The position numbers and the translations under genes were made by a program. A DNA stretch of 64,000 nucleotides from Abditibacterium sp. (GTDB taxonomy: Bacteria > Armatimonadota > Abditibacteriia > Abditibacteriales > Abditibacteriaceae): the NCBI GenBank assembly GCA_965246885.1, contig OZ251992.1, positions 1,856,001 to 1,920,000 on the forward strand, read 5' to 3'. Position 1 is the first letter of the stretch. Each line of letters starts with the position of its first letter. This document shows, in pieces, positions 47,967 through 52,942 of this stretch. Below the pieces are notes generated by a model. The model had not been told where the DNA came from. It ran no database searches and saw only the letters and a program-made list of their open reading frames with translations.

Positions 47967-48022
47967 GGCGCCGCGCGTTTTCGGGTATCATCTCTTGGTT
48001 CTTGCGAACACGAGGTGCCTCT

Positions 48023-48263
48023 ATGAAAACACACGACGCATTCGACGACACGCTCTGCTTTTGAGCGAATCAGCAAACGGCGACGGGGCTTCCCGTCCGA
48101 AACCCGCGTCAAGCGCGGCCCGCGCATCGTGCGCGGCGACAAGGAGCTAACTGAAAAACTGGGCCGCCGCGACCTGTGCCCCTGCAATTCAGGGCACAGG
48201 TTCAAAAACTGCTGCCTATCCTCCGGGCGCTACGACGGCTCCTTGCGGGCCTACTACTTTTAG
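48023..48263 (+). CDS. SEC-C zinc-finger small protein, apparently requiring a +1 frameshift at TTT-TGA (48059-48064); not in ORF track
   Basis: GAGGTG SD, then [13 protein letters not shown]. The +1 frame continues [19 protein letters not shown]...[20 protein letters not shown]...YYF*. Confidence 0.75.
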
Positions 48264-48281
48264 GGAGTAAACCGCTTCCAT

Positions 48282-48316
48282 TGGCCCGGTGCGTTTCGCA
48301 CCGGGCCAGTTTATTT
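48282..48316 (+). terminator. Intrinsic terminator downstream of the SEC-C gene
   Basis: TGGCCCGGTGCG-TTT-CGCACCGGGCCA followed by GTTTATTT. Confidence 0.75.
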
Positions 48317-48387
48317 GGAGGCTGTCAAAGGTGCAATTGGCAATTTCGACGCCCTATGCCACAGAGCCACTGGCCACCCAAAGAACC

Positions 48388-51571: not shown

Positions 51572-52942
51572 TTATTCTGGCTCGGCGCTTCCCTCCAAGA
51601 TGAGGCCGCGCGTTTGCGGGAAGCGGGCATACCAAAGCTCCAAAGCGTCGTGCAGGTGTTTGGCGTAGCGGTAGTGCGCGCCCAAGCCGGTGCGCAGTTC
51701 CGCTTCGTAGATGAACTTGTCGGCGGTGGTGGTGTGCTCGAAAGCGAATTGCGCGCCGAGCAGAAGCCAGTAAACCCCCTGCGGCCCGACGTGTTCGCGC
51801 GCCGCCGCTTCGGTTTGGCGCTCGCCGATGTCCAACAGGGCGCGCAGTTCCGGGTTGTCCGGCGCTTGGTCGCGGGCGCCGTAGAAACCGCGCGGTTGCC
51901 ACCCGACGGACTTGGAGCCGGTGCGGTGACGGTTGAGGTCGCGCAGTTCGGCCAACGCGACGGCGCTCCAGCCAAAGGAGACGCCCGTCATTTGCAAGTC
52001 GCGGCCAACGGGCGCATAGCGGTTGTCGTGAAAGCGCAAGTCTTGGGCGAAGCGGCGCGCGGCTTCTTCGTCGGAGTGGGTGCCGGGAAGCAGGACGCGC
52101 AACGAGGCGTTAGCGGGCGCTTCGCCCTCGCACGATGGCGCAGTGGGTTGCTCCGTTTCCACACGCAAGGCGCTTTGCAAGGAAGGTTGCGCGGTCGCGT
52201 GCTTGATGAGGCGCGGCGCCACAAGCGCGAGTTCGTCGCGGATGAGCGCGCCCAAACTTTGCGATTCGGGCAGGGGATGAGAGAGCAACTGCTGGCACAG
52301 CCCGACCCACGCGCGCGCGGATTGGACGAGCATGACGTTGGTCTTGAGCGCGGCAGGCAAGAAGTAGCGGGCGCGGTCGAAGGCGTAGTTGCGCTTCATG
52401 CGGGCGACGGTTTTCTGCGCTTTCTCGCTCGAATCGCCCAACAACTCGGCAGGGATGCGCGTGACGGCGGGGTCAGCTTCGGCGACGCCTTCCCAGAACG
52501 TGACGGCGCGCTCGTAGGCCGCGAGCGCTTCGCTCATGGCAGCGTGCCATTGGGCTTGGGCGGGGGCGGGGATGCCCAACTCGCTGGGGTCGGGCAGGTT
52601 ATCGGGCGACAAGCGGATGTAGCGCGTCGAGGACTCCTGCCCACCCGCGAGCGGGCACAAACCCCACACGTGGAAGGCGAGCCACATGGAAACCCCGTCG
52701 AGGAAAATGGCGACCGGCGCCATGTCCGCGACGCTGGCGTGCCCATAGTCAATCATCCGAAAGATGGAATCAACGGACTTATCGGGGTTAGCCGGGTCTA
52801 TGCGGGCGAGGATGGCTTCCAGACCATCGTTCGAGCGGGAATAACGCGCGCCGGTCGCGGCCAAAAGTTCGGGGGTAAGCGCAGGCCGCCCCGCGTCGGT
52901 GGCGGCTTGGGTGGGGCAAAGGGCAACGTGGGTGGCGCGCAT
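51572..52942 (-). CDS. Long two-domain ThyX-like (FAD-dependent thymidylate synthase family) protein
   Basis: ARYSRS, YGHASVAD, QESSTRY, FDRARYFLP, RDLNRHRT. Confidence 0.75.
   Translation of the reverse strand: MRATHVALCPTQAATDAGRPALTPELLAATGARYSRSNDGLEAILARIDPANPDKSVDSIFRMIDYGHASVADMAPVAIFLDGVSMWLAFHVWGLCPLAGGQESSTRYIRLSPDNLPDPSELGIPAPAQAQWHAAMSEALAAYERAVTFWEGVAEADPAVTRIPAELLGDSSEKAQKTVARMKRNYAFDRARYFLPAALKTNVMLVQSARAWVGLCQQLLSHPLPESQSLGALIRDELALVAPRLIKHATAQPSLQSALRVETEQPTAPSCEGEAPANASLRVLLPGTHSDEEAARRFAQDLRFHDNRYAPVGRDLQMTGVSFGWSAVALAELRDLNRHRTGSKSVGWQPRGFYGARDQAPDNPELRALLDIGERQTEAAAREHVGPQGVYWLLLGAQFAFEHTTTADKFIYEAELRTGLGAHYRYAKHLHDALELWYARFPQTRGLILEGSAEPE

Follow-up and report, generated by a model that had tools for sequence, protein, structure and literature searches.

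A SEC-C knuckle gene of Abditibacterium sp. and its relatives is predicted to be read through serial +1 frameshifts at UUU-Y sites

The window analyzed here is a 64,000-nucleotide stretch of contig OZ251992.1 from Abditibacterium sp. (assembly GCA_965246885.1, forward-strand positions 1,856,001 to 1,920,000), and coordinates below are positions within it. Between sucB and an FUSC-like ORF lies a small gene, present in single copy in the genome, whose predicted product spans more than one reading frame. An initial annotation had described a Shine-Dalgarno (SD) sequence at 48012-48017 and an ATG at 48023 opening a 13-codon ORF that ends in TTT (48059-61) and TGA (48062-64), together with a +1 frame closed by TGA 48024, whose first possible start is the GTG at 48129 and which carries ATC at 48069; all of these coordinates are correct. 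The features of the gene, all on the + strand, are as follows.

47986..47991, +: possible -10 element TATCAT (tentative; TA-rich hexamers lie at a similar distance in relatives, as judged by eye)
48012..48017, +: Shine-Dalgarno sequence GAGGTG, seen in the sequence
48023..48064, +: 13-codon leader in frame 0, with Cys-Phe-stop at its end and an acidic residue four codons before the Phe
48056..48065, +: shift site S1, TGC TTT TGA G (E, P and A codons), with predicted UUU-to-UUU +1 re-pairing
48063..48260, +: body in the +1 frame, with a basic stretch, the SEC-C knuckle and an aromatic tail
48165..48218, +: SEC-C metal-binding motif, four Cys and a conserved Ser (Pfam PF02810)
48172..48206, +: position of the family site S2, in frame here (AGG TTC AAA)
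48172..48181 and 48192..48201, +: perfect 10-bp inverted repeat, with the S2 position at its 3' arm
48255..48264, +: shift site S3, TAC TTT TAG G, with TTT-TAG at the 3' end of the gene
48262..48270, +: tail Arg-Glu-TAA, reached in the +1 frame after S3
48280..48318, +: intrinsic-terminator-like hairpin, a 14-pair stem-loop followed by a T run

The hidden SEC-C gene proposed for the +1 frame is borne out by Pfam (SEC-C, 28.6 bits against a cut-off of 20.4, E 1.3e-6), its body segment is 63-85% identical to homologues, and the terminator noted downstream corresponds to the 14-pair stem-loop and T-tail listed last; a consensus scan of the locus gave no full sigma-70 promoter upstream of the gene. 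If an in-frame TTT-Y is counted as one step, the ORF runs from ATG 48023 to TAA 48270 and encodes 81 amino acids. The 79-residue product of a single shift that had been suggested is therefore revised, since S3 (codons at 48255-48263) had been overlooked: the predicted Abditibacterium product is 81 residues long and would be reached via two +1 shifts. A single-base error in the reads, which had been named as a possible source of the break, finds no support in two Logan assemblies (X1 record 7 and X2 record 16) that show 0 differences and 0 gaps across the gene, both being from one study and possibly from the source sample. One base, at window position 48191, is absent from a single contig of run X3 (another study, ~90% alike, depth 2.7) and may be an error. 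Elsewhere in the window, a 456-aa ORF at 51572-52942 on the - strand matches ThyX only weakly (31 bits, where the cut-off is 88).

To place the gene in its family, we compared 11 loci from relatives, the best 80 of 484 confirmed GTDB-genome matches, 2 viral contigs, the best 80 of 451 metagenome matches, 9 loci from its own phylum and 16 from two other samples; six duplicate loci and three without an anchor were left out, and counts use 190 loci for the rule described next, 188 distinct loci for the census and 148 complete genes. Under a rule that treats an in-frame TTT followed by a pyrimidine as a four-base step (TTT-TTC excepted), with success defined as an SD-start, a full knuckle and a terminal Arg-x-stop, a complete gene is obtained at 160/190 loci, versus 0/190 under the standard code. 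The findings that the initial annotation had named as refuting it, such as homologues with a continuous ORF and no conserved slippery stop, were not borne out. The 30 failures of the rule include contig ends, mis-called starts and copies that are decayed or have altered tails, as well as three CTT-T or GTT-T first sites and seven unshifted TTT-CC at a Gly-Phe-Pro position; since these seven loci read TTT-CC without a shift, the rule is not absolute. Among 128 four-base rules, scored by a looser criterion, TTTY performed best (56/60, versus 27 for the next).

Because the rule test defines its own success, spacings were also counted without any rule. At S1 (188 loci), the best SD-start needs a +1 shift in 158, all with NTT-Y in the start frame (155 TTT-Y and 3 CTT-T/GTT-T). 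Another 13 have that start in frame and no TTT-Y, and 12 would require +2/-1; each of these 12 carries TTT-Y in its start frame, and those inspected are runs of seven T. Five were unscored (two skipped, three with a weak SD). At S2, within the knuckle, 175 loci were scored and 13 were unanchored: the spacing is 34 nt, one base too many, in 146/175, 145 of these with TTT-Y, and 33 nt in 26/175, 0 with TTT-Y, the other three being shorter. In 45 loci an extra base is found at a further position, S2b, in every case with TTT-Y. At S3, 143 loci combine TTT-Y with a terminal Arg in the +1 frame, 31 have that Arg in frame and no TTT-Y, 3 are discordant and 11 were unscored. The extra base and TTT-Y coincide almost perfectly at these four positions, and the Cys ligands are split between different frames in 146/175 loci. 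The SD-ATG in another frame, and with it the need for a +1 shift at S1 that had been claimed from the Abditibacterium copy alone, is conserved in 158/188 homologous loci, and this frame break is no chance effect. As expected of programmed +1 shifting, the break recurs at a site capable of re-pairing, and the protein is conserved on either side of it, with near-background synonymous usage and invariant residues; the multi-site recoding signal of the family is real and conserved.

Variants at S1 were also seen. Several planctomycete loci (L042, L056, L077, L089 and others) have seven T at S1, where either a pair of +1 slips or a single -1 slip would be needed, and three loci (L133, L211 and L168) have CTT-TGA, CTT-TAG and GTT-TGA, respectively, in place of TTT-Y, CTT-TGA being the prfB site. 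Seven loci without S1 (L044, L103, L137, L138, L158, L203 and L215) cluster on the tree and often lie directly upstream of a TROVE gene.

Complete genes hold two to four sites, and none of the 148 has fewer than two. The commonest set is S1+S2+S3 (80/148); the Abditibacterium copy is alone in having S1+S3, without the commonest internal site, and its S2 region is one base shorter than in most relatives. S2 changes at least five times on a weakly supported tree, and because the sister of the Abditibacterium copy on this quick tree has S2, the site was probably lost here. The hairpin at the S2 position (-20.6 kcal/mol) is the strongest local one of 187 homologues, and this inverted repeat, which reaches the S2 position, hints at a template-switch mutation behind the loss. 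In L229 and L238, TTT for the Phe before Pro (here after TCC) comes with an extra base, giving a new site.

The family is patchy, occurring in 22/301 genomes of its own phylum (one probably SecA) and in 13/251, 1/201 and 7/301 genomes of three other samples, with record labels that include Acidobacteriota, Planctomycetota, Verrucomicrobiota, Armatimonadota, Pseudomonadota, Chloroflexota, Cyanobacteriota and others. Its database entries are only mis-called fragments with arbitrary starts, and a 39-aa core is matched by 725 clusters. Two plasmid records match, and the one inspected (L218:6001-6147) holds a decayed copy flanked by an integrase on one side and by SIR2 plus ATPase genes on the other; other decayed copies are L155, L192 and L230. 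Annotated phages gave no family match. One viral contig (L111:446-7651) carries the gene within an array of 19 tRNAs, all Leu, Ser, Tyr or Phe, and one genome (G354:C11) has two near-identical intact copies, L220 and L232, 1245 bases apart.

In the protein, four Cys are retained in 147-148 of the 148 genes (a set selected on these Cys), and the conserved Ser of the SEC-C motif is present, which together predict a metal-binding knuckle. The nearest solved sequences are the C-terminal knuckles of YchJ and SecA. Membership in the YecA, YchJ or SecA families was rejected, as NCBIfam scores of 22-27 bits fall short of cut-offs of 140-158 with matches centered on the C-terminal knuckle, and the protein lies far below the cut-offs of all five NCBIfam families touched. 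Like the SecA, YecA and YchJ knuckles (PF02810) it has a four-Cys motif with Ser; unlike them, it is a stand-alone 80-aa protein with a basic N-terminal part of its own. A single-sequence model reached pLDDT 47 and an alignment-based one a mean pLDDT of 55.8, confident only at the knuckle; Foldseek with the model gave no match at E <= 0.001, its top rows being SecA knuckles, and an atlas search with a homologue returned SEC-C clusters only. In characterized SEC-C proteins, SecA-type knuckles are reported to bind iron, with the Ser needed for iron preference (10.1101/613315), the SecA knuckle to bind 70S ribosomes (PMC6620043), and the C-terminal cysteines of YchJ to respond to oxidation and to assist in DNA binding (PMC13377102).

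Codon usage around the sites follows the phase of the presumed slip. After TTT at S1 (148 site calls), the next codon is TGA in 51, CGA in 48, TTT in 26 (T-runs) and another in 23; at S2 it is CAA in 95/126. Stops against the C-variant number 51 versus 48 at S1, 28 versus 15 at S2b and 62 versus 17 at S3, with CAA favored at S2, and TTC accounts for 69% of Phe codons in the background. For the most part the next residue fixes the A-site codon, and where the choice is free it leans to slow ones: after TTTT, Arg is encoded by AGR, which gives UAG, in 64/64 cases versus 216/1745 (12%) elsewhere in the gene, as a slow A-site codon would predict, and Arg after TTTC is AGR in 17/27 versus 12/43 after unshifted TTC. 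Positions that call for no shift avoid TTT: Phe before Pro is TTT in 5/93 cases (33.0 +/- 4.4 expected), and Tyr at that position is TAT in 49 and TAC in 23. In the E-site, codons are mostly U-N-C at S1 and S3 and mostly Arg at S2, and a Ser codon there is TCC in 96% (23% in the background). Leaders mostly span 10-13 codons, and the 95 leaders counted have E or D at -4.

Starts are strong: in 95% of homologues the pairing with the anti-SD reaches at least -5 kcal/mol when spaced by 5 nt. The initial annotation had cautioned that S1 lacks a prfB-like internal SD nearby, and this holds across the family: at shift sites 0-16% reach -5 kcal/mol at 3 nt spacing, versus up to 95% at starts. Among up to 60 sites of each class, S1, S2 and S2b showed no conserved 3' stimulatory structure; the one structure seen was the terminator that follows S3, where the hairpin has a mean fold z of -2.8. 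A candidate conserved hairpin ending at S2 was discarded; its excess over permuted codons was no greater than in four control regions, it showed no covariation, and its consensus was unstructured. A search for a shared upstream motif gave only tRNA-like words in ~10-15 of 145 upstream regions.

In the Abditibacterium genome, in-frame TTT-Y occurs 6314 times, in 1645/1798 long ORFs, so that shifting must be low or context-specific. A single tRNA-Phe with a normal 7-base loop was called (genome 92.7% complete), and codon reassignment or quadruplet decoding was rejected, given the frequency of TTT-Y in ordinary genes and a tRNA-Phe without an enlarged loop. The genome's own prfB has CTTTGAC. ARAGORN also calls a 76-base tRNA-SeC (G000:C1:351206-351281), short for that class, and two tRNA-Stop genes elsewhere.

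The neighborhood points in places to RNA repair. A repair gene lies in 33/188 loci, at least three tRNAs in 13/188 and either in 40/188 (29/102 among loci of 5 kb or more), compared with a repair match in 2/355 ten-kb tiles of the Abditibacterium genome as a control; the neighbor queries were drawn from the same loci, and kin loci are not independent. The other 148/188, including that of Abditibacterium, have neither within the stretch of DNA retrieved, and 86 of the 188 are shorter than 5 kb. Recurrent neighbors are Hen1-Pnkp, RtcB, TROVE, Thg1, an HD-kinase with RNA ligase, and RlaP, often directly downstream on the same strand. The Abditibacterium genome has rtcB and hen1-pnkp away from the gene, and as rtcB occurs in 27/27 and hen1 in 22/27 genomes of its own family, a genome-level link is uninformative. 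In one cyanobacterial locus (L075:909-6463) the gene is flanked by an array of 24 tRNAs on one side and by rtcB on the other, resembling the long arrays of Anabaena. Anabaena genes of such a kind respond to translation stress (PMC8421152), and derepression of the stress regulon to which rtcB and a tRNA array belong in Anabaena is reported to lower frame fidelity (PMC10272220).

Based on these patterns, the shifts are very probably made by the ribosome, and we favor, at a probability of roughly 0.6, a full explanation that joins serial ribosomal +1 slips at UUU-Y with steep sensing of damaged translation. The P-site tRNA-Phe would slip +1 on UUU-Y, often at UCC/UGC-UUU-YGA, and a slow A-site (UGA/UAG, rare CGA, CAA/CAG) and a U-N-C codon in the E-site appear to help. 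Each shift would probably be inefficient at rest, keeping the 81-aa protein normally scarce, and the yield would climb when decoding slows or tRNA-Phe grips poorly, with tRNA cleavage, loss of A37 modification and antibiotics as candidate triggers. UUU-Ynn is described as +1-prone in bacteria (PMC5009743) and TTT_C as among the efficient +1 tetramers (10.1101/2025.10.02.679949); miaA loss raises +1 shifting (PMC9303304), and in one study its loss alone gave no rise at Tyr codons (PMC13326639). We give about even odds to a full-length yield that is the product of two to four low efficiencies and rises steeply under translation damage. The basic SEC-C knuckle might then bind RNA or the ribosome in an RNA-repair or translation-stress response, which is the least certain step. 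More tentatively, and at somewhat below even odds, the gene could serve as a fidelity gauge, widespread in bacteria, in which two to four UUU-Y slips form a multiplicative AND gate. The ribosome- or RNA-binding knuckle would then be produced only upon damage to tRNA-Phe or to the A-site supply, and would in turn act on RNA repair or the keeping of frame. At its boldest, such a gauge would sense the MiaA/MiaB modification of tRNA-Phe, which is iron-sulfur-dependent, and answer with an iron-binding protein; the predominance of Arg codons in the E-site at S2 makes a poor fit to a pure MiaA reading, and the presence of both miaA and miaB in the Abditibacterium genome does not discriminate between readings.

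The shifts could also be real and yet sense nothing, merely holding a toxic or low-demand protein scarce. That no regulator or stimulator was found, that most copies stand alone and that site number ranges from 2 to 4 are all compatible with such a constitutive brake; a weak SD or promoter would be simpler, however, yet the SD is strong, every one of the 148 complete genes keeps at least two sites though sites were lost several times, and repair genes accompany 33/188 loci, so we regard it as unlikely. The model of the initial annotation, in which the shift competes with RF2 as in prfB (and with RF1 at S3), draws on the stops that face both sites of the Abditibacterium copy, on the excess of stops over the C-variant at three of four sites despite 69% TTC in the background, and on CTT-T at S1 in two loci. 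In the Abditibacterium copy both remaining sites face stops (UGA and UAG), so termination speed would matter locally, but a dependence on stops does not extend to the family, which often has sense codons; RF2 specificity is likewise not family-wide, the A-site often being CGA, CAA or CAG (about half of S1 and most S2 sites have sense codons), with no internal SD and no release-factor gene among the recurring neighbors. We regard this model as improbable.

It is equally improbable that the ORF is a cis-acting leader in which ribosome progress through the shifts controls downstream repair genes or the terminator, the protein being secondary: repair genes often do follow directly on the same strand, and S3 adds just two codons right before the hairpin, but 63-85% protein identity across phyla, near-background synonymous usage and invariant Cys speak against it, and downstream genes are unrelated in most copies. 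Slippage of RNA polymerase on a T run, which would drop a base and put the mRNA in frame, could draw on the T-rich nature of every site and on the 12 loci whose first site, a longer T run, requires +2/-1; yet the runs are mostly of 3-4 T, CTT-T and GTT-T variants exist, and the signal is tied to codon phase, stop-creating Arg codons and the E-site codon, which leaves very little room for it. Separate peptides or internal starts, a UUUY-reading four-base tRNA, and errors or pseudogene decay are largely refuted. An ATG does follow Phe-Glu-x in 39/136 genes and some copies are decayed, but an SD-bearing internal start exists in only 11/136, 146/175 loci divide their Cys ligands between frames, the sole tRNA-Phe has a normal 7-base loop, and the breaks recur at identical positions across phyla.

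Serial ribosomal +1 slippage at UUU-Y also has partial counterparts among known systems. The prfB gene, encoding release factor 2, undergoes a +1 frameshift at CUU_UGA_C. The family resembles it in +1 P-site re-pairing onto UUU, an A-site stop and a position near the 5' end, and a few members have CUU_U; it departs from the prfB pattern of CUU_U plus UGA in its UUU P-site (UGA in 51/148 S1 calls), its frequent sense A-site codons and the missing internal SD, and in having 2-4 serial sites and a product that is not a release factor. The influenza PA-X motif UCC_UUU_CGU shifts at ~1% in eukaryotic systems (PMC3498833). S1 is often TCC/TGC-TTT-CGA (TCC in 44 and CGA in 48 of 148 calls; TGC-TTT-TGA in the Abditibacterium copy), and the two share a preference for UCC over AGC in the E-site, the +1 direction and the lack of 3' structure; unlike PA-X, the family is a bacterial chromosomal gene whose full product would require a whole series of shifts. 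The slip chemistry itself is already known (PMC5009743). Tetranucleotide and direction agree with E. coli UUU-pyrimidine slippage and the proposed YopN-TyeA site (PMC5009743, PMC3789692), but those are single sites, the YopN one described there as unconfirmed by mutation, whereas the sites of this family are conserved across phyla. Perkinsus mitochondria and Euplotes have several +1 shifts per gene (PMC5009743); theirs are special translation systems, whereas here TTT-Y is normal in thousands of places. Our literature search found no description of a bacterial gene with serial obligatory +1 sites, and the main text and two supplement files of Antonov 2013 (PMC3711429) do not contain 'SEC-C'.

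The 2012 PA-X paper left the use of its motif in cellular genes open (PMC3498833), and the family described here would be a natural, conserved use of both UUU-Y slippage and a PA-X-like motif in cellular genes. It accounts for hundreds of mis-annotated SEC-C fragments in databases, and its more than 150 alleles found in nature, among which sites have come and gone or changed from stop to sense codons and back, form a test set for the rules of the E-, P- and A-sites. If the shifts prove to be stress-gated, the gene would stand for a regulatory logic that is new and offer a template for steep reporters of translational fidelity.
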